A stretch of 64,000 bases of DNA from Actinomycetota bacterium (lineage in GTDB: Bacteria > Actinomycetota > Humimicrobiia > Humimicrobiales > Humimicrobiaceae). Shown piece by piece: positions 4,753 to 46,561 of this stretch. The first letter of the stretch is position 1. Every line of letters begins with the position of its first letter. The notes under the pieces were generated by a model, which saw nothing but the letters and a program-made list of their open reading frames with translations, made no database searches and was not told the DNA's origin. The stretch is taken from positions 8,108 to 72,107 of the forward strand of contig JAQVDY010000005.1 in the NCBI GenBank assembly GCA_028698215.1. The letters are read 5' to 3'. A program made the position numbers and the translations under genes.

Positions 4753-5190
4753 ATGGTAACTATTAATGTAAAATCAATTGATAAAAACGCTAAGTTTCCC
4801 ACTTACGCTCATCCCGGGGATGCTGGAATGGATCTGTACAGCAGGGTAATGATAACTTTAAAACCCATGGAAAGAAAGAAAATTCCTACCGGTATACAGG
4901 TGGCTATACCTGAAGGTTATGCCGGATTTGTGCAACCTAAATCTGGATTGGCCATTGATAATGGAATAGCGCTGGTAAACAGTCCAGGGCTAATTGATTC
5001 AGGGTTTAGGGGTGAAATATGTGCAATCTTAATTAATTTAGACCAGAAACAGGATTTTATTATAAATAAAGGCGATAAAATATGCCAGTTGGTTATACAA
5101 AAAGTAGAGAAAGCTGAAATTAAGACAGTTAGCCAACTGGATAATACCAGTAGGGGGAAGGGAGGGTTTGGCAGCACTGGAAGATTCTAA
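4753..5190 (+). CDS. dut: dUTP diphosphatase (trimeric dUTPase)
   Basis: 145 aa. Carries the dUTPase motifs AGMDL, GLIDSGFRGEI and the C-terminal GGFGSTG motif. Confidence 0.9.
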   Translation: MVTINVKSIDKNAKFPTYAHPGDAGMDLYSRVMITLKPMERKKIPTGIQVAIPEGYAGFVQPKSGLAIDNGIALVNSPGLIDSGFRGEICAILINLDQKQDFIINKGDKICQLVIQKVEKAEIKTVSQLDNTSRGKGGFGSTGRF

Positions 5191-6020
5191 TTTAGTAATA
5201 CCAAACCCAAACAGGACATTGCTTATACAAAAAGATTAATTCATTTCACCTTCAAGCGCATAAAAATTTAAAGCACATTATTTAAATTATTGCCCTGCCC
5301 CTAATGTTTACTGAGATATTTATCTATTATTATGACTACTATATATTACTAATTAGTATAAAAGATATAATTATAGATGTCTATATTGTAACATTTGTTA
5401 TAATATGAAAAGATTTATGGTAAATTATCTTATATTTTATGCCTAAACTAATGGCTTAACCTGGTTTGATAGCAAATTAACTGAATAGTTTATATACCAT
5501 CAAATTTTTTTAAAATAATGGATTCTTATACATAAATAATAATAAATTAGGACCTTGGAGAATGGCCGGTTGGGCAAGGCCATGTTATGGAGATCTGAGC
5601 TTAAGTTCCAAAAATAATATTACTAGCGCTGACAGGGTTATAGTTAATCATTTATGAAAATATAAATTAATCATCTATCAGAAACAGAAGCAATTAAAAG
5701 GTCTATATTGGCCAAAGAGAAGAAACTTAAAAACAAAATAATTGAGTTAGAATAAATAGATTATTTTATTTAAATTTTTACATTTTATAGAAGTAGGCTA
5801 GAAAGGCATGTGAAAGCGACTTTTTTAGGACAAAGGGATATAAAAGCCTGGTAATAGCTCTAAACACTAGGAAAAATATAGAATAAATATAACTACCGAT
5901 AATATATATTATGTTAACTTTTAAATATTTTAACTATTTTCCCCATCATTCCAAATACTCTACTTATATCCCCTGTAAATATTGTATTTAAAAGTTTACC
6001 AAAAATAATAAAAGCAAATA

Positions 6021-6060
6021 AAAAGTACAGGGGTATTACAATTACCCCTGTACTTTTTCC
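6021..6060 (-). terminator. Bidirectional rho-independent terminator after fucI
   Basis: Perfect 15-bp stem AAAAGTACAGGGGTA (6021-6035), loop TTACAAT, then TACCCCTGTACTTTT (6043-6057). A and T runs flank both sides. It lies 37 nt beyond the fucI stop. Confidence 0.8.
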
Positions 6061-6093
6061 AAGGACGATGTACGTGGTATAAAGAATCTTTAT

Positions 6094-7893
6094 TTAAATT
6101 TTCTTATACAGTGACCCAAAATTCCTACAGGCCCTGTAGTCAGCCCCCTCCATATCCTTGGTGCCAAAAGCAGCCCAGGCGCTAGGCCTAAACAGCTTGC
6201 TATCATCAACATTATGCATGGCCACCGGTATCCTTAGCATAGAAGCCAAGGTTATAAGCAAAGCTCCAATGTGACCATAACTGAATACTGCATGGTTTAC
6301 TCCCCAGTTGTTCATAAGGGTATAAGTATCGTTAAAGGGAATCTTACCGGTTATTTTAGGAGCAAACCAGGTATTGGGCCAGGTTGGGTCGGTTCTGTCA
6401 CTTAAAATCTGGCCAACTTTTTCCGGTAAAGAAACGGAATAGCCTTCTGCAATTTGAAGTACAGGGCCCAGTCCCTTGATAAGGTTTATCCTGAACATGG
6501 TTACCGGCATATCACCTTTAGTTACAAAGTTAGCAGAAAAGCCGCCGCCCCTGAAGTATTCAACGTTTGCTGGCCTAAACTGGGAATTGGCCAAGGTAGC
6601 CTTAACTTCATCTTCAGTGATATCCCAGTATGGCTTCATGGCAGGTTTTCCGTCTATGCTTTGCTGACCTGTTCCGTCTAATGCTGCTGAACCTGAATTT
6701 ATCAGATGTATAATACCAGTTTTGCCATAGCCCTCTAAATCATACCCGGTTACCCTTTTTACTGCCTCTGGGCTCCAGAAGGTTCTTACATCAGCAAATA
6801 CCTGTGCGGTATTGGTTAAGAGATGTCCAAAAATCATGGGGACGCCATTTAAGGCATCGTTTTCTGTAGCCACCAGGTAAGGCTGTCTTATGCCGTTCCA
6901 GTCAAAGGAAGTGTTTAGCATGGTTTCAGTAAAATCACCATTGGGGAAATGATCAGTCCACTGGCGCTGTCCCTGAAATCCGGATGCTAAAGCATTATGG
7001 CCCATAGCTTCTTCCTTAAAATCAATATCGGCCAGTTTTGGATTTCCTACCATAAGATCTCTTACAATTAAAGTCATTTTAACCACAAATTCCCAATCAG
7101 CATCTTTTTGTGCCCTGGTTTTCTGAATGGCAGGCGAGTTATTATCTGGTCCTTCTGTAAGGTTTTTCTTTACCCAATCCAGTGCTTTGCTGTATTCCTG
7201 GTGGTCATAGATGTTCTCTTCTATTCTCCTGATTATTTCAGTGGAATCAACATATTCACATCTCATTCCCAGATAATCTTCAAAGAAATTGGGATCTACT
7301 ATGGATCCGGCAATACCCATAGAGGTATTACCTATGGAAAGATAGGATTTACCCCTCATGGCTGCCACGGCTAGGCCGGCCTGGGCAAATTGAAGCAATT
7401 TCTGGGCTACATCTGAAGGTATGGAGGTATCATCTGCATCCTGCACGTCTTTACCGTATATGCCAAAAGCAGGAAGGCCTTTTTGGGCATGTGCTGCCAG
7501 AACTGCTGCCAGATATACTGCTCCCGGCCTTTCACTGCCGTTAAAACCCCAAACTGCTTTGGGCCTGGTGGGATGCATATCCATGGTTTCAGAGCCATAA
7601 CACCAGCTGGGAGTAACGGTAATGGTTAGGCCTACCCCTTCCCTGGCAAATTTATCATCGGCCATGGTAGCTTCTGCTACTCCGCCTATAGTGGTGTCCG
7701 CAATAACGCACTCCACTTGATCCCCGCAAGGGTGCCTTAAGTTTTCTGAAATTAGTTTAGCGGCAGATTTAGCCATGTTCATGGTCTGGGTTTCCAGAGA
7801 TTCCCTTACCCCCTTCCTTCTGCCATCGATGGTAGGCCTGATGCCTATTTTGGGCAAGGTACCTATTAACCTGTTTTTGGTTGAATCGCTCAT
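6094..7893 (-). CDS. fucI: L-fucose isomerase
   Basis: 599 aa. Near-collinear identity to E. coli FucI throughout, for example [55 protein letters not shown] and [29 protein letters not shown] lies 9 nt upstream. Confidence 0.95.
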
Positions 7894-7923
7894 GCTTTGG
7901 TGCTCCTTTATGTATTATTGTTT

Positions 7924-9168
7924 TTAATATTTTCCATACTCATAAGCTGCTTCCAGCATAGCTATAACATTCTGGGGAGGCACATCTGCCAAAATATTAT
8001 GTATTTGATTAAATACCATACCCCCACCCTCCCCTAAAATTTCAATTCTTTTTTTAACATCCTGCCTGATTTGTTCAGGGGTTCCCTTGGCCAGCACCTC
8101 TTGGGTATTACAGCCTCCACCCCAGAAAACCAGGTCATTTTTAAATTCTTTCTTAAGTTTTTCCGGTTCCATATCCCTGGCAGTGGTTTGAACTGGGTTT
8201 AATACATCTAAACCTGCATCAATTAATCCTGGTAAAAGCTCATAAATAGAGCCGCAAGAATGTAAAAATACCTTGCAGCTGCTGTTTTCATGTACAAAAT
8301 CCCACATTTTTTTATGGCGGGGCTTAAACACTTCATCATAGATTTCAGGTGACATGAATGGACCATCCTGTCCTCCCAGGTCATCACCAAACTGCAGCAA
8401 GTCAACATACTTCCCTACTCCATCAATAACCTTCTTTAACTTTACCAGATTTCTTTCTACCAGGGTGTCCAGCAGATACATGGTTTTCTTTTTATCGGTA
8501 TAAACATCCATCATAAAATTTGCCAGTCCCCTTAAAAATGTACCGGTTTCAAACATATTGCAGCCTACTGATAAAACTATGGAATAATCAGTCTCCTCAT
8601 ATAGCTTTTTAATGCCTTCCACAAACCGGTTAAATTGTTTAGGGTCAAATATGTTTAGATGCCAGGGCGGCGAAGGAATTGCCCACATATGCTTATCTAA
8701 ATCTTCATCATTGAATTCATCAGGGATAGATGGAAGGTTTTGGTAAATCCAAAAACACTGGTCTACGTAAAGGGAGGATGCTGGTTTCTTGCCCAGCCTG
8801 GTACCATTTTCATCTGAAACATATACGGTGTTTTTTTCATCAATTTCCACATTTAAAAATTGTGGTATTAAGCATTTAGACCCATCATTTAAGGTCCAGG
8901 TCCTCCAATCGTGTTCCGAGAGTAAGAACCCCTGTCCGGCATCAATGGCATCTATGTGGAAGTGTTTCATAATATCGCGTTGTGGAAAAGCAAGCTGCTG
9001 TATAAAGTCATACATCTTAGCCTGGCCACTTTCCTTTCCAAGCTCCTTTAACAGCTTATTGTAAGCAATAGTAGAAATACCTGAAGATCTCATGCTGCCC
9101 AGGTCAATGGGTATCCTGTCAGCGGTTTTATGTTCTAATATAGCCCTAATTCTTTGTCTGGAATTCAT
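7924..9168 (-). CDS. URO-D (uroporphyrinogen decarboxylase / MtaA-like methyltransferase) family protein, paralog 2
   Basis: Start trimmed to the internal Met (MNSRQRIRAIL...). It has SD GGGGAG 5 nt upstream and begins right after the stop of the upstream paralog. Family hallmarks are R-I-P-I-D-L-G near the N-terminus and the (beta/alpha)8 spacing. It parallels paralog 1 (TSYDRVIASLEHREPDRVPFDLGG). Confidence 0.6.
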   Translation of the reverse strand: MNSRQRIRAILEHKTADRIPIDLGSMRSSGISTIAYNKLLKELGKESGQAKMYDFIQQLAFPQRDIMKHFHIDAIDAGQGFLLSEHDWRTWTLNDGSKCLIPQFLNVEIDEKNTVYVSDENGTRLGKKPASSLYVDQCFWIYQNLPSIPDEFNDEDLDKHMWAIPSPPWHLNIFDPKQFNRFVEGIKKLYEETDYSIVLSVGCNMFETGTFLRGLANFMMDVYTDKKKTMYLLDTLVERNLVKLKKVIDGVGKYVDLLQFGDDLGGQDGPFMSPEIYDEVFKPRHKKMWDFVHENSSCKVFLHSCGSIYELLPGLIDAGLDVLNPVQTTARDMEPEKLKKEFKNDLVFWGGGCNTQEVLAKGTPEQIRQDVKKRIEILGEGGGMVFNQIHNILADVPPQNVIAMLEAAYEYGKY

Positions 9169-37668: not shown

Positions 37669-39012
37669 ATTTACCCCTTAAGGCATAGGTCAGTCAAAGA
37701 AGCAAACCCTGGTTCCGGCCCGGTAGCCTACTGGATGAGCAGAGACCAGAGGGTGCAGGATAACTGGGCTCTCCTGTTTGCCCAGGAGTTGGCACTTAAG
37801 GCAGCAAAACCCCTGATAGTATTTTTTTTCTTGGACTATAGTTTTTTAGAAGCATTGCCAAAACATTATTGTTTTATGCTGGAAGGGCTGAAACAGGTCC
37901 AAAAGAACTTAGCGGCAAAAAATATATCTTTTCATATAGTCGAAAATCCACTGCATCAGGTAAAAACTTTTCTTAACCACTATAATATCACAGCCCTGGT
38001 AACCGATTTTGATCCTCTCAAACCTAAAAGAAATTGGCTGCAGCAAGTATCTTCAGCGGTTAAGACCCCGGTATTTGAAGTTGATGCCCACAACCTGGTA
38101 CCCTGCTGGCTGGCTTCAGGCAAGCAAGAGTATGCTGCCTATACTTTAAGGCCAAAACTTAACCGGTTAAAGGACCGGTATCTAAATAAATTTCCACCCT
38201 TAAAGAAACAGCCATCCCTATTTCCAGATTCCTACCACGACCCTGGCTGGGATAGTATTTATAAAAAATTAAAAATAACTAAAAACATGCTCGACAAGTT
38301 CAGGGTAAGCCCTGGAGAAAGGAAAGCTTTTAAAACCCTGGAATATTTCCTGGAAAACAAATTAGAAGATTACAGCCAAAATAGAAATGATCCCAGCCTT
38401 GATGCTACTTCCGATCTCTCCCCTTATCTGCATTTTGGCCAAATATCTGCCCAAAGGATAGTGCAGGAAACATTAAAATTTAAACCGGGCATTTCACGTG
38501 ATTCATTTTTAGAGGAACTTATAGTACGCAGGGAACTAGCTGATAATTTCTGTTATTACAACCCTAACTATAATAGGTTTAAAGGGTTTCCAAAATGGTC
38601 TCAGCAGACCTTGCTGGAACATCAGAAAGACCACCGCAGCTATATTTACAGCCTGAAACAGCTGGAGGAAGCTCAAACCCATGATATTATATGGAATGCA
38701 GCTCAGACCGAAATGCTTCTAACCGGACGCATGCATGGCTACCTCAGGATGTACTGGGCTAAACAGATACTGCAGTGGACCCCAGACCCTGCACTAGCTT
38801 TGGAATATGCCCTTTACCTAAACAACCATTATATGCTGGATGGCCGCGACCCCAATGGTTATACTGGAGTTGCTTGGAGCATAGGAGGGGTGCATGACCG
38901 GGCCTGGAACCAGAGAGAGGTCCTGGGTAAAATAAGGTATATGTCCGCAGGGGGACTAAAAAGAAAATTTGACATTGAAGCATATTTAAAAAAAATCCAA
39001 AATTTAACCTAA
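37669..39012 (+). CDS. Class II CPD photolyase, likely initiating at a non-canonical ATT codon (tool ORF starts at ATG 37735)
   Basis: The protein matches class II photolyase throughout ([14 protein letters not shown]..., C-terminal FAD domain [25 protein letters not shown]). The 66 nt upstream of the ATG are in frame and encode ...[10 protein letters not shown], matching the conserved N-terminus recalled for Methanosarcina photolyase ([14 protein letters not shown]). An in-frame ATT at 37669 lies 7 nt after SD GGGGAGG (37655-37661). No ATG, GTG or TTG lies between the TAA at 37648 and 37735. Confidence 0.8.
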
Positions 39013-42504: not shown

Positions 42505-43068
42505 TTATTTTAATATTTGATAAATCAAATAAACTATAATAGCTACCAGTATAAGGCCCAGGATTATTAAGCAGCCAGGGCTTTTAAGCATAGGGCCCCA
42601 GGCATCCTGGATATTGGGAGAAGTGCCGGGCACAGTGGCAGCAGGTTTAAAATCCTGATTAAGCTTGTAACCGCAATAAGGGCATAGATTGTAATCATCC
42701 TTGATAGGCTCATGGCAGTCAGGGCAGAACTCTTTACCTAATTTTTGGACAAATTCGATAGAAGATTCTATCTCCTTCTGGCCTAAGCTAAAATTATCCC
42801 TTAATTTTTTTAATAATTTTTCTTCTTTATCAGTGATCTGCCCTTCTTTCGTAAACTGCAAATAGGTTTTAGCATAGAGTTCCAGGATACTGTCCTTGTC
42901 AAATTTTTTCAGTATTTCTATTTCTTCAGGAGTAAGGTCTTTATACACCAATATATCGTCTTCAATTTTATCAAATCTCTTATCCAGCATTTCATCACAT
43001 TGTTCACAATAAGGCGATTCTGCATTTTCCGGCAGTTCCTGGCCGCATTCTTTACATTTATTAACCAC
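42505..43068 (-). CDS. Double zinc-ribbon protein with C-terminal TM anchor (hypothetical)
   Basis: CKECGQ...CEQCD and CPDCHE...CPYCG ribbons separated by a charged helical region. C-terminal TM LIILGLILVAIIVYLIY. Confidence 0.4.
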   Translation of the reverse strand: MVNKCKECGQELPENAESPYCEQCDEMLDKRFDKIEDDILVYKDLTPEEIEILKKFDKDSILELYAKTYLQFTKEGQITDKEEKLLKKLRDNFSLGQKEIESSIEFVQKLGKEFCPDCHEPIKDDYNLCPYCGYKLNQDFKPAATVPGTSPNIQDAWGPMLKSPGCLIILGLILVAIIVYLIYQILK

Positions 43069-43139: not shown

Positions 43140-45395
43140 TTAAAATAAACTACTAATATGTTCCAGGATGACAACTGCTGCCTGCTTATCTAATGGCTGG
43201 TTATCATTTCCGCACTTAGGGGAATAAACGCAAGCTGGGCATCCCTGGCTGCAGCTGCAATCCCTTACCAGTTCATAAGCCATACCAGACCATGAACCAA
43301 AAACATAAAAACCTTTTTCCGACAAGCCTATTCCTCCCGGATAAGCGTCATATATAAATATAGCTGGCTGTCTTTCGGGGGGATAATAAGTATAGGAAAC
43401 CCCGCCTATATCCCAGCGGTCGCACATAACCAGAAGAGGCATTATGGATATCATGCTATGTTCTGTACCATGGATTCCTCCCCCGAAATCTAATCCCATA
43501 TGGTCTAATTTTTTTCTTAAGTGGTCCGGTAGATTAAACCAAAGCCCTAATGTATCGAATTCCACAGGAGGAAGATTTAGCTTCGGGGTGGCCAATGTTC
43601 GATCGTCTTTTATAATTTTATAGGCATGATAAGTCTCTTTAACCGATATCCTGCCATAATTAATTTCAACCAGCCCCAGGTTTTGCTGGCTGATGCTATT
43701 TATAATATTTATTTCAGTGGTTTTTAAGGGGCGGGTATAATAATCTACTGGTTGTGACTTTATTTCTATTATAAATTGCTCCATATCAAAATTATTGACT
43801 ATGTAGGTTTCACCCTGATGCACCATTACTGCCCCTGGATGAGCTTCACCATAGGCCTGGGATAGGCTCATGGTTTCAATTACCTTTCCCTCATTTAGGA
43901 TATTGAAAGAGGGCTGGCCTAAATTTTGCAGGTCAACTATATGGCTGGGGGGCTTTTTCCCGCTGTATATCCAGCCATGGACAGTATCTTTTAATAAACC
44001 GCTATGCCCGTAATCCTGAAGGTATGGTTTAAGTTTAAACCCAAAATGCTGCTCATCTTTATCCTTTAAGGGCAGTTCTGCTGATGCGCAAAGCAGCTGA
44101 CCGGCATTGATATAGGTATTGGCCAGGTCAATTACAGCATGCTCGGGAGAGCTTTTGAAAATATAGTCAGGATGGCCGGCCAGGTATTGGTCCAGGGGAT
44201 TATTAAACATAACCATAACTACCAGCGAAGGATCGCTTCTCCTCCCTGCCCTTCCCGCCTGTTGCCAGGTAGAAATAATAGTACCTGGAAAACCTGAAAT
44301 GATTACCGCATCCAGGTTACCGATGTCTATACCTACCTCCAGGGCATTGGTAGACACCACTCCTAATAGGCTTCCATCCTTAATGGATGATTCAATGTCT
44401 CTTCTCTGCTCAGGCATATACCCAGCCTTATAGGATGAAATCCTAAGCCCCAGCTGGCTGCCGCTTTCCTTTAATTTATCCTTGGCCCATTTGGCAATCA
44501 ATTCTGCCATTTTCCGGGAAGAGGTAAAACATAGTACCTGTAGGCCTTGGCGAACCAAATACATCAAAAGATCTACTGTTTCCTGGTGGGTGGACATAAT
44601 ATCCTGGTAAGCTGTGAATGGATTATAAAGAAAGAAATATTTATCCCCGTGAGGGGAGCCGTCTTCTTCCACCAGCTCAAATTCCCTGCCAGTGAGTTTC
44701 GTGCTGAATTCAACCGGATTGGCCAAAGTAGCAGTAGATACAACAAACTGTGGTTTAGCCCCGTAATAATCTAAAATTCGGTTAATCCTTCTGATAAGCA
44801 GGGCAATATGGGATCCGAATACACCCCGGTACTGGTGAGCTTCATCTAGTATTATAAAGCTTAAGTTCTTAAAGAACCTTTCCCACTTCCAATGCTGGTT
44901 TAAACTATGGTGCATTTGGTAAGGATTACTTAAAATAATCCTGGATCTGGAAAGTATAAGGGATTTTTTGCTCCCGTTGGTATCTCCATCATAAATACTG
45001 GCGGACAGGTCTATGCCGGAGTCCTTCTCCAATTCCAAAATTGTCTTTAGCTGGTCATTGGCTAATGCTTTAGTGGGATAAAGGTAGAGTGCTGTGGCCT
45101 GAGGATCATTTTTTAATTTTTCTATCACCGGCAAATTGAAAGCCAGGGTTTTTCCGGAAGCAGTAGCAGTGGTAATTAGAAGGTTCCTGCCTTGCTGCAG
45201 GATAGTTACCGCCTGGCATTGATGGGTATATAACCTTAAGCCTTTAGCTTTCAGATAATGTTTAATCCAGGAAGATTCAACATTTATATTGCCATATCGG
45301 GGAGGCTGGCAGGGCAATATTTTCTGGTATACTATCCTGGAGCCAAAACGACCAGAATTACCTAGCTTTTCTACAATATCTATGAGCTTTTCCAT
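43140..45395 (-). CDS. DEAD/DEAH-box helicase with C-terminal DUF1998 zinc domain (MrfA/YprA-like)
   Basis: Helicase motifs TATASGKT (I), DEAH (II), SAT (III), QQAGRAGR (VI). The C-terminus carries CSCSQGCPACVYSPKCGN, a 4-Cys cluster typical of DUF1998. Confidence 0.75.
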   Translation of the reverse strand: MEKLIDIVEKLGNSGRFGSRIVYQKILPCQPPRYGNINVESSWIKHYLKAKGLRLYTHQCQAVTILQQGRNLLITTATASGKTLAFNLPVIEKLKNDPQATALYLYPTKALANDQLKTILELEKDSGIDLSASIYDGDTNGSKKSLILSRSRIILSNPYQMHHSLNQHWKWERFFKNLSFIILDEAHQYRGVFGSHIALLIRRINRILDYYGAKPQFVVSTATLANPVEFSTKLTGREFELVEEDGSPHGDKYFFLYNPFTAYQDIMSTHQETVDLLMYLVRQGLQVLCFTSSRKMAELIAKWAKDKLKESGSQLGLRISSYKAGYMPEQRRDIESSIKDGSLLGVVSTNALEVGIDIGNLDAVIISGFPGTIISTWQQAGRAGRRSDPSLVVMVMFNNPLDQYLAGHPDYIFKSSPEHAVIDLANTYINAGQLLCASAELPLKDKDEQHFGFKLKPYLQDYGHSGLLKDTVHGWIYSGKKPPSHIVDLQNLGQPSFNILNEGKVIETMSLSQAYGEAHPGAVMVHQGETYIVNNFDMEQFIIEIKSQPVDYYTRPLKTTEINIINSISQQNLGLVEINYGRISVKETYHAYKIIKDDRTLATPKLNLPPVEFDTLGLWFNLPDHLRKKLDHMGLDFGGGIHGTEHSMISIMPLLVMCDRWDIGGVSYTYYPPERQPAIFIYDAYPGGIGLSEKGFYVFGSWSGMAYELVRDCSCSQGCPACVYSPKCGNDNQPLDKQAAVVILEHISSLF

Positions 45396-46453
45396 TTTTG
45401 TTGCAATAAGGAGAATAATTTACCTAAAGAAAAAATATCCTGCTGGTTATGCCTTATTACTGGAATAAGGGTGCCAATATTGCCGGTTTGGATATAGCGC
45501 TGGTAAAACTGAGGGACCATAAATCCCGGTAAATCTTGATCCCTGCCTATACCCAGTATATTTTGCTCCAGTGAGCTTAATCTAAAACTATCTAACTTGT
45601 GTTTCCAAAAACCACGGCATAGCGGCAACAGGTCCAAATGAATTCTATCCAGGTCATGGTTCAAGCCATAGTAGCAAAGCCGCTGCCTAATCATTGGTAT
45701 ATCAAACATGCGTCCATTAAAAGTGATAAATGCCGTATGTGAAGATATATGGTGTTTAAGCAGGTACAGTACTGCAGCTTCTTCTTCCAGGCCCCTGGCC
45801 AGGTATTGCTTCACGGTAATAGAGCCTTTTTTAATCTTACCTACACCTATTAAAATAATAGGCATGTTATATAAGCCCATAGTTTCTATATCCAATAGCA
45901 GAAAATCCTTTAAATCTATAAATGAAGAAAGAAGAAGATGATGGGGGTGGGAACAAGAATACCATCGGGAAATCAGGCTACTAAGCTTTTCTAGTTCTTT
46001 TTTTTGCATAGAATCAATGAACTGCCTGGCTTGATGCCCGAACCTGGGATGGGAAGCCAAATCTTCCATGCTCCGGTAACCTTCTTTTTTTAGCTGGGAT
46101 TCAGTTATAGAACCAATGCCATAGATAAGTTTTAAATCTTTTCCCAGAAAATCTCCTGCCTGACCAGCAGCCAATCTATGTAAATCCATGGATTTAGACT
46201 CAGTTACTAAAAAACAGTTTCCTTTGCTAGTTCTAATCTGGTTTCCCTTTAAAACATCACTAATTTGTTGGCCCTGGTGCTTTTGGGTCAGGTATTTAGC
46301 CTGCTTTTGCATAAACTCCCATATATCCTGCTGGTTTTGGGCTGCTTTGCTCAGCCGGTCAATATAACGGGTCCTTCCCGATATGAGGGCTCCACAGCTA
46401 TGACAGTAATTTTGAATAATATCTATTTTAATACCACAACCAGGGCAGTACAT
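45380..46453 (-). CDS. RNase-H-like 3'-5' exonuclease with N-terminal zinc ribbon (MrfB/YprB-like)
   Basis: N-terminal CPGCG...CHSCG. Exo motif I LLLDIETMGL. Overlaps the helicase gene by 16 nt. Confidence 0.55.
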   Translation of the reverse strand: MYCPGCGIKIDIIQNYCHSCGALISGRTRYIDRLSKAAQNQQDIWEFMQKQAKYLTQKHQGQQISDVLKGNQIRTSKGNCFLVTESKSMDLHRLAAGQAGDFLGKDLKLIYGIGSITESQLKKEGYRSMEDLASHPRFGHQARQFIDSMQKKELEKLSSLISRWYSCSHPHHLLLSSFIDLKDFLLLDIETMGLYNMPIILIGVGKIKKGSITVKQYLARGLEEEAAVLYLLKHHISSHTAFITFNGRMFDIPMIRQRLCYYGLNHDLDRIHLDLLPLCRGFWKHKLDSFRLSSLEQNILGIGRDQDLPGFMVPQFYQRYIQTGNIGTLIPVIRHNQQDIFSLGKLFSLLQQKWKSS

Positions 46454-46561
46454 TAAATCCTTCCCTAAAAAATAAGGTAAACTTTATTAAAAAACACTTT
46501 TTTATCCGATAGTATAAAAAAAGATACTATTATAAATCAATGAACCATGATAGTCCCTTAA

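Follow-up and report, generated by a model that had tools for sequence, protein, structure and literature searches.

Does a pair of overlapping helicase and exonuclease genes on contig JAQVDY010000005.1 (assembly GCA_028698215.1) represent a DNA repair system of Bacillus subtilis that has been rearranged, or does that system exist in a second form? The window that we analysed is a 64,000-nucleotide (nt) stretch of this contig (positions 8,108 to 72,107). A preliminary description of it had likened the two gene products to the mitomycin C repair factors MrfA (YprA) and MrfB (YprB), had proposed that the pair is a rearranged variant of a dedicated inter-strand-crosslink repair system, and had framed the comparison around Firmicutes. 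The likeness holds, while much of the rest does not. The source is a metagenome-assembled genome (MAG) labelled Actinomycetota bacterium, and MrfAB is reported not to act on inter-strand crosslinks (Burby & Simmons, 10.1101/426304). We consider it likely that the pair is an MrfAB-like DNA repair machine of a distinct type, marked by a helix-hairpin-helix (HhH) module in the exonuclease, that serves UvrABC-independent excision or 3'-end processing.

The best match of the helicase in the PDB is B. subtilis YprA/MrfA (6znp, E = 1.3e-137), with residues 44-724 aligned to 45-731 in one phmmer stretch. The two proteins are collinear at equal length (751 residues vs a 751-residue chain), and we found no defence-type inserts or fused nucleases. 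A Pfam search returned DEAD (E = 1.4e-33), Helicase_C (2.5e-17), WHD_HRQ1 (4e-08, residues 422-487) and MZB/DUF1998, in agreement with the initial assignment of a DEAD/DEAH helicase with a C-terminal four-cysteine DUF1998 domain. Helicase motifs I, II, III and VI are intact (ASGKT, DEAH184, TAT221, QQAGRAGR378), and C713-x-C715-x3-C719-x2-C722 (CSCSQGCPAC, 713-722) aligns with the cysteine motif of MrfA. The SftH-like model TIGR03817 also matches residues 46-747, at 727.8 bits and short of the model cutoff of 874. Burby and Simmons recognized MrfA homologues by a DExH domain, the domain at the C terminus and four cysteines (10.1101/426304), all of which the window helicase has. By homology, we assign it to the MrfA/YprA family of superfamily 2 (SF2) helicases and predict that it is a 3'-to-5' single-stranded DNA translocase.

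Among all PDB chains, the exonuclease has a single sequence match, B. subtilis MrfB (8un9, E = 2.3e-22), which together with 6znp upholds the MrfA/MrfB-like combination at E-values that put chance out of the question. RNase_H_2 (PF13482) covers residues 186-350 (E = 1.1e-35) and the motif LLLDIETMGL occupies residues 185-194, as expected of the RNase-H-like exonuclease first described. It had been left open whether the remaining DEDD residues were lost. Mapped on the 8un9 chain, which comprises MrfB residues 33-279 (numbering offset +32), D188, E190, D251, H335 and D339 align on MrfB D107, E109, D172, H258 and D262, and L194 aligns on the Leu113 wedge. All five are retained, and a non-catalytic reading is not borne out. 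In MrfB, these positions were established as the DEDDh residues by mutagenesis, and a wedge role was assigned to L113 (PMC11194089). The five residues and the leucine wedge are invariant in our alignment of 14 family members. The DEDDh residues are the sole criterion by which Burby and Simmons recognized MrfB homologues (10.1101/426304), and the window exonuclease carries them.

Structural modelling points the same way. The AlphaFold2 (AF2) model of the exonuclease (predicted local distance difference test [pLDDT] 85.8, predicted template modelling score [pTM] 0.82) has a DnaQ-like core with a long N-terminal extension before beta-1, a feature of the MrfB-type fold. In a Foldseek search its top match was MrfB 8un9 (E = 1.3e-9), followed by the exonuclease domains of archaeal PolB, Pol epsilon and TREX2, and the same list of structural neighbours is reported for MrfB itself (PMC11194089). 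We conclude that the 357-residue protein is a predicted DEDDh exonuclease of the MrfB family, with probable 3'-5' polarity. The first exonuclease motif was correctly placed in the middle of the protein, but the accompanying contrast, an N-terminal motif in MrfB, does not stand, as D107 and E109 lie well inside that 413-residue protein (PMC11194089). The true N-terminal difference is about 80 extra residues before motif I. No NCBIfam model covers the exonuclease, which NCBI names 'ribonuclease H-like domain-containing protein'. A relative without a TPR domain (P0005) is named 'YprB with RNaseH-like and TPR domain' by JGI, a misleading label. Current public names of such exonucleases are therefore generic or wrong.

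Outside the core, two features that the preliminary description had not mentioned set the protein apart from Bacillus-type MrfB, namely an inserted HhH module and a missing C-terminal TPR domain. In the AF2 model the protein ends at residue 357, straight after the core, and a Pfam search found no TPR match in it at E ≤ 0.1, whereas 5 of 6 control exonucleases of the TPR type do match. The HhH module carries an L-x-L-I-x-G-I-G motif that is invariant in the family. Ahead of it lies a helix and beta-hairpin (H42-58, E71-75, E78-88 in the AF2 secondary structure) that the TPR type also possesses. The cores of the HhH and TPR types align in hhalign with a probability of 99.9 and 39% identity. In a full-length profile comparison only the core aligned; the hairpin was seen with larger N-terminal sub-alignments (76 HhH-type vs 40 TPR-type sequences; probability 92%, E = 6.7e-7, 32 columns). 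Because both the core and the N-terminal hairpin are shared with the TPR type, the HhH module is an insertion between conserved elements. This insertion and the absence of a TPR domain are the family-wide differences from Bacillus-type MrfB.

The N-terminal zinc ribbon is a different matter. It had been reported as an extra of this exonuclease, and so it is, within a small clade of Actinomycetota-labelled members only. The Pfam match to Zn_Ribbon_1 (residues 2-22) is weak and sub-threshold (E = 0.0032), and a low-confidence linker follows at residues 25-39. The four cysteines are nevertheless kept in orthologues P0002-P0004, P0018, L001, L006-L009 and L016, all of them labelled Actinomycetota MAGs. 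Ribbon-bearing members share 43-48% exonuclease identity, and the MxCxxC start is also conserved, in at least 8 orthologues. Among the best 150 of the 8,665 relatives introduced below, only 2 of the 150 cluster representatives have a ribbon, and in one of them, P0026, it is of a different pattern (CxxC-N17-CxxC). The zinc ribbon is a real, lineage-specific add-on of one small clade and does not define the HhH type. Longer fusions also occur in the family (P0068, 933 aa; P0026, 416 aa; P0093; P0125; P0141). P0068 begins with a calcineurin-like metallophosphoesterase domain, after which come about 450 unassigned residues and then the HhH-exonuclease.

We then asked how the gene order of the window compares with that of its relatives. 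A profile of the exonuclease retrieved 8,665 relatives among 1.84 billion cluster representatives, and nearly all of the best 150 are 300-370 aa long and span both the core and the HhH region. A scan of a single genome from each species yielded 356 relatives, of which the best 80 loci were analysed along with five earlier ones; these loci were picked by similarity to the query and one peptide pattern, and the counts describe that sample only. An MrfA-like helicase is present in 45 of the 85 loci, and in every one of the 45 it lies immediately downstream of the exonuclease on the same strand. Archaeal hosts of such loci are Methanomicrobiales, Methanofastidiosa, 'Thermococci' MAGs, Altiarchaeales and an Asgard MAG (Wukongarchaeum); bacterial hosts are Syntrophales, Desulfobacterales, Bacillota/Peptococcaceae, Gemmatimonadota and 'Actinomycetota' MAGs. 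As a control, the same pipeline was run on TPR-type exonucleases from metagenomes, where the helicase gene precedes that of the exonuclease in 38 of 39 linked loci, the order also seen in B. subtilis and at locus L088. The helicases themselves divide in the same manner: in a neighbour-joining tree of 75 helicases, the HhH-linked and TPR-linked clades are pure (38/38 and 36/36), with 56% and 53% identity within types and 36% between types. Given these gene-order counts and the helicase tree, the window pair represents an old, co-evolving operon type and not a rearranged Bacillus-type operon. A one-off local inversion is ruled out by the same split and the same tree.

Genuine rearrangement is seen once, in the control. 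L126 (exonuclease 4797-6152, helicase 6164-8548) is the lone TPR-type locus with a downstream helicase, and its helicase still groups with those of the TPR type (48% vs 36% identity); it is a secondary rearrangement. The remaining 40 of the 85 HhH-type loci, mainly from Methanobacteriaceae, hold a stand-alone exonuclease. Here we observed a gene for a PolX (HHH_8/PHP) DNA polymerase tail-to-tail with the exonuclease in 21 of 40 loci (L003-L005, L023, L027, L035, L036, L047, L048, L050-L054, L059, L061, L063, L069, L075, L081 and L085), and in 0 of the 45 helicase-linked ones. The exonuclease in these loci lies at about 6001-6950 and PolX at about 7000-8730 on the opposite strand. This adjacency could reflect lineage synteny or a repair association.

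Table 1. Features of the exonuclease-helicase locus and its downstream neighbour (window coordinates).
Feature	Coordinates	Strand	Description	Source
mrfB-like exonuclease gene	45380..46453	-	357 aa, ATG start	ORF list
mrfA-like helicase gene	43140..45395	-	751 aa; SF2 DEAH helicase with WH, OB/CON and MZB (DUF1998)	ORF list, Pfam, PDB match
Exonuclease stop/helicase start overlap	45380..45395	-	16 nt; junction ATGGAAAAGCTCATAG	
N-terminal C4 zinc ribbon	46382..46453	-	exonuclease residues 1-24; Cys 3, 6, 17, 20 (CPGC...CHSC)	
N-terminal helix and beta-hairpin	46184..46336	-	exonuclease residues ~40-90; common to TPR-type MrfB	
Helix-hairpin-helix (HhH) module	45920..46168	-	exonuclease residues ~96-178, helical; LKLIYGIG at 107-114	
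DEDDh exonuclease core	45386..45904	-	exonuclease residues 184-356: D188, E190, D251, H335, D339, Leu wedge L194	
MZB/DUF1998 zinc-binding domain	43227..43463	-	helicase residues 645-723; PF09369, E = 4.7e-24, above gathering score	
Double zinc-ribbon (DZR) protein gene	42505..43068	-	187 aa; Zn_Ribbon_1 and DZR; C-terminal transmembrane helix	Pfam

The open reading frame (ORF) coordinates confirm both the exonuclease-first order and the 16-nt overlap that had been described. A Shine-Dalgarno-like GGAAGGA element lies 5' of the exonuclease ATG, and on inspection of the junction none was visible before the helicase ATG. Translation of the helicase is likely coupled to that of the exonuclease through the overlap. 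An overlap of about 10-28 nt is found in most related loci and gaps of 1-7 nt in a few; negative 'gaps' of -158 to -683 are artefacts of calling ORFs from the most upstream start and are not real overlaps. The surrounding genes belong to core metabolism and housekeeping (transketolase, HAD phosphatase, SDR, a GGDEF/HD-GYP protein), and synteny around the pair is kept in relatives at 43-48% exonuclease identity. The GC content of the interval is inside the range of the remaining window, with no local anomaly, and we found no integrase, tRNA flank or similar sign of a mobile element. The exonuclease-helicase pair is a chromosomal two-gene operon in a housekeeping context.

The closest known system is the mitomycin C repair operon of B. 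subtilis (Burby & Simmons 2019; Roske et al. 2021; Manthei et al. 2024), with which the window shares both protein families and the overlapping two-gene layout. The helicases agree in length, in the domain order NTR-RecA1-RecA2-WH-OB/CON-MZB, in the DEAH box and in the four cysteines; the exonucleases agree in the DEDDh core (39% profile-level identity), the catalytic residues, the leucine wedge and the N-terminal hairpin. The helicase gene comes first in B. subtilis and second in the window, and MrfB has a C-terminal TPR domain (three repeats, the C-terminal third of the protein), whereas the window exonuclease has an HhH insertion of about 80 residues and, like its clade alone, the zinc ribbon. 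The window helicase moreover falls in a separate clade, at about 36% identity to helicases of TPR operons against about 56% within its own type, and the hosts of the HhH type come from anaerobe-rich archaeal and bacterial lineages. The 'YprA only' helicases of the repair branch, such as SftH of Mycobacterium smegmatis (TIGR03817; Yakovleva & Shuman 2012), are likewise SF2 DEAH helicases that end in a DUF1998/MZB domain, but helicases of the SftH type have no linked MrfB-like exonuclease, while the window helicase has one upstream to which it is likely translationally coupled.

A zinc finger combined with an HhH element is known from nick- or gap-binding proteins such as the NAD+-dependent ligase LigA and RecR, and provides an analogy only for the window exonuclease. 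In both cases a C4 zinc module and HhH motifs occur together on a DNA repair enzyme and plausibly serve to bind the duplex backbone near a nick irrespective of sequence. There is no detectable homology, and order and spacing are not alike: the ribbon of the window protein is separated from its HhH module by a flexible linker and the helix/hairpin. In the searchable literature, the supplements of Bell et al. included, we came across no account of the HhH-type architecture or of the fixed reverse order. Majorek et al. describe COG3359 proteins only as 'frequently followed by TPR', and association or fusion of YprA with YprB homologues is mentioned without detail in the Bell et al. 2025 preprint. 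The HhH type is a widespread archaeal and bacterial variant of the MrfA/MrfB families in which the gene order is reversed and the putative DNA-binding add-on is a different one.

These features are suggestive of a mechanism wherein the helicase and exonuclease form a complex, with the N-terminal helix and hairpin common to Bacillus MrfB as the likely contact. The conserved gene overlap and the co-divergence of the two proteins lend indirect support to such an interaction. The helicase would load at a nick or gap and unwind the damaged strand, its OB-CON-MZB canopy clamping the strand during 3'-to-5' translocation on single-stranded DNA, and the exonuclease would degrade the unwound strand from its 3' end. 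Bulky or blocked DNA would thereby be excised, or processed at its 3' end, independently of UvrABC. The HhH module would stand in for the TPR domain as the accessory element that binds DNA or a partner; it probably keeps the exonuclease seated on the backbone of the duplex next to the nick, and the zinc ribbon on its flexible linker may provide the window's clade with an additional handle for binding DNA or a partner.

Several points weigh against a repair machine of this kind. For its substrate and phenotype we extrapolate from MrfAB of B. subtilis, and homologues from Pseudomonas aeruginosa did not cross-complement B. subtilis (10.1101/426304). Phage defence also makes use of YprA-family helicase-nuclease pairs. 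About half of the archaeal relatives are without a linked helicase, suggesting that the exonuclease can act in another setting, and the loci behind the gene-order counts were chosen for their similarity to the query. The zinc-ribbon region is modelled at low confidence (pLDDT 56-65). Since MrfAB spares inter-strand crosslinks and distant homologues fail to cross-complement, mitomycin specificity should not be assumed for the window pair, and the dedicated crosslink repair once proposed for it is not upheld.

One rival is general nucleic-acid housekeeping that has nothing to do with lesion excision, for instance the trimming of 3' ends at gaps or stalled forks in partnership with a gap-filling polymerase, or the processing of R-loops or RNA, with MrfAB-style damage repair as an adaptation specific to Bacillus. 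We regard this as unlikely. It draws on the frequency of the HhH lineage in strict anaerobes and methanogens, on the PolX genes beside stand-alone exonucleases and on the metallophosphoesterase domain of the P0068 fusion. The PolX arrangement, however, is convergent and not operonic, and may be lineage synteny, given that it is largely confined to Methanobacteriaceae. MrfA and SftH, moreover, act on DNA. Housekeeping and repair also overlap as explanations, both amounting to DNA 3'-end processing. That the two genes are mere neighbours or the ribbon stems from a mis-called start, leaving neither a functional unit nor a special N-terminus, is scarcely credible. The ORF lists were made mechanically, and the ribbon falls below the Pfam threshold and is modelled with low pLDDT. 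Against this, the linkage is co-oriented in all 45 helicase-linked loci, mostly overlapping and present in two domains of life, and the phylogenies of helicase and exonuclease co-segregate. The four cysteines and the start are conserved at identities below 50%, and the GGAAGGA element precedes the called ATG.

An anti-phage or anti-plasmid module like DISARM, Druantia, ARMADA or Dpd would also combine a helicase with a nuclease, a common layout in defence, and these systems (DISARM DrmAB, Druantia DruE, ARMADA, Dpd; Bell et al. 2025 preprint) share with the window a YprA-type core, an OB-CON-DUF1998 canopy and an associated nuclease. A PADLOC scan gave partial matches of the helicase to SngC, DruE, BrxH and DrmA. 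These matches are limited to the generic helicase core (residues about 50-400), with none to a full-length defence model and nothing for the exonuclease, and we rejected defence as the principal explanation. Defensive YprA systems carry BrxA-like or zinc-binding inserts, fused Vsr, PLD or EEP nucleases, or split DUF1998 genes, and have methyltransferases and further helicases as neighbours. The window helicase follows the repair protein MrfA from end to end without such inserts or fusions, and its nuclease is a DEDDh exonuclease encoded upstream. We found no methyltransferase, BrxHII-like helicase, PLD/Vsr, DrmB or other defence gene nearby. The metabolic neighbours, the synteny retained across relatives, the unremarkable GC content and the lack of integrase or tRNA-flank signs all make a defence role very unlikely. 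In the Bell et al. preprint, too, those YprA helicases that go with YprB homologues are assigned to the family's repair branch and not to its defence branch.

If the pair is an MrfAB-like repair machine, its form matters for a recently found UvrABC-independent repair route (PMC11194089, PMC7797055), as it bears on how MrfAB targets lesions, on what the MrfB TPR domain does and on the contact between MrfA and MrfB. The existence of a deep-branching HhH version points to an old partnership of helicase and exonuclease that is not bound to mitomycin C. The shared N-terminal hairpin is a candidate for a conserved MrfA-MrfB contact, and HhH-type exonucleases are natural 'domain-swap' proteins for dissecting the accessory modules of MrfAB. 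Such a type is unsurprising in principle, yet with it an excision route shared with archaea becomes conceivable. A stronger proposal, which we hold to be improbable, is that the HhH-type operon constitutes a separate ancient pathway of excision or 3'-end processing in archaea and anaerobic bacteria, with a self-targeting HhH module, an archaeal excision role and a clade-specific zinc layer. Were it true, the HhH module, with the zinc ribbon where present, would let the complex find nicked or damaged duplex unaided, with no need of the recruiting factor that has been postulated for MrfAB of Bacillus. The operon could then belong to the missing excision machinery of archaea that have no defined nucleotide excision repair, and in the window's clade the zinc ribbon and a co-conserved DZR membrane protein might add a layer of recruitment or regulation.

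This DZR protein is encoded 71 nt downstream of the helicase gene and has a helical middle region between its zinc ribbons and the transmembrane helix. Its gene has its own ribosome-binding site (GGAGAG), the stretch that separates it from the helicase gene showed no terminator-like site, and it is possibly co-transcribed with the pair. It directly follows the helicase gene in L001, L007, L008, L016 and L171, a position specific to the zinc-ribbon clade, in which the neighbourhood HAD-tkt-(tal)-exo-hel-DZR is syntenic as a whole. Distant DZR relatives of 149 aa do not adjoin a helicase. As homologues beside the pair occur only in the syntenic clade, we rejected the DZR protein as a third component and leave it as a possible neighbour.

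Further downstream, about 4 kb away, the opposite strand carries another repair gene, for a DNA photolyase (37735..39012, plus strand); between it and the pair are the SDR gene, a 7TM-PAS-GGDEF-HD-GYP signalling gene and the DZR gene. Upstream of the exonuclease gene is a 108-nt spacer with a perfect 7-bp inverted repeat (ATAGTAT-N8-ATACTAT in the minus-strand reading, 46509..46530), which overlaps the -10-like TATACT of a promoter-like site. Given the AT-rich surroundings, the repeat may be a chance occurrence, and to our knowledge it is no match to a Cheo/LexA box. In the related MAGs L001, L006-L009 and L016, a transaldolase gene occupies the place between transketolase and exonuclease (about 5168-5995 in L001), with gaps of at most 6 nt, an arrangement that points to a shared transcript of tkt-tal and the repair pair in these genomes; the window has no transaldolase gene, only the spacer at that place. 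L171 (GCA_034520345.1, JAXHNQ010000011.1) has the gene order of the window, HAD-tkt-exo-hel-DZR-GGDEF-SDR-photolyase, with nearly all genes split into 2-5 fragments, which most likely reflects assembly frameshift errors and not pseudogenisation.

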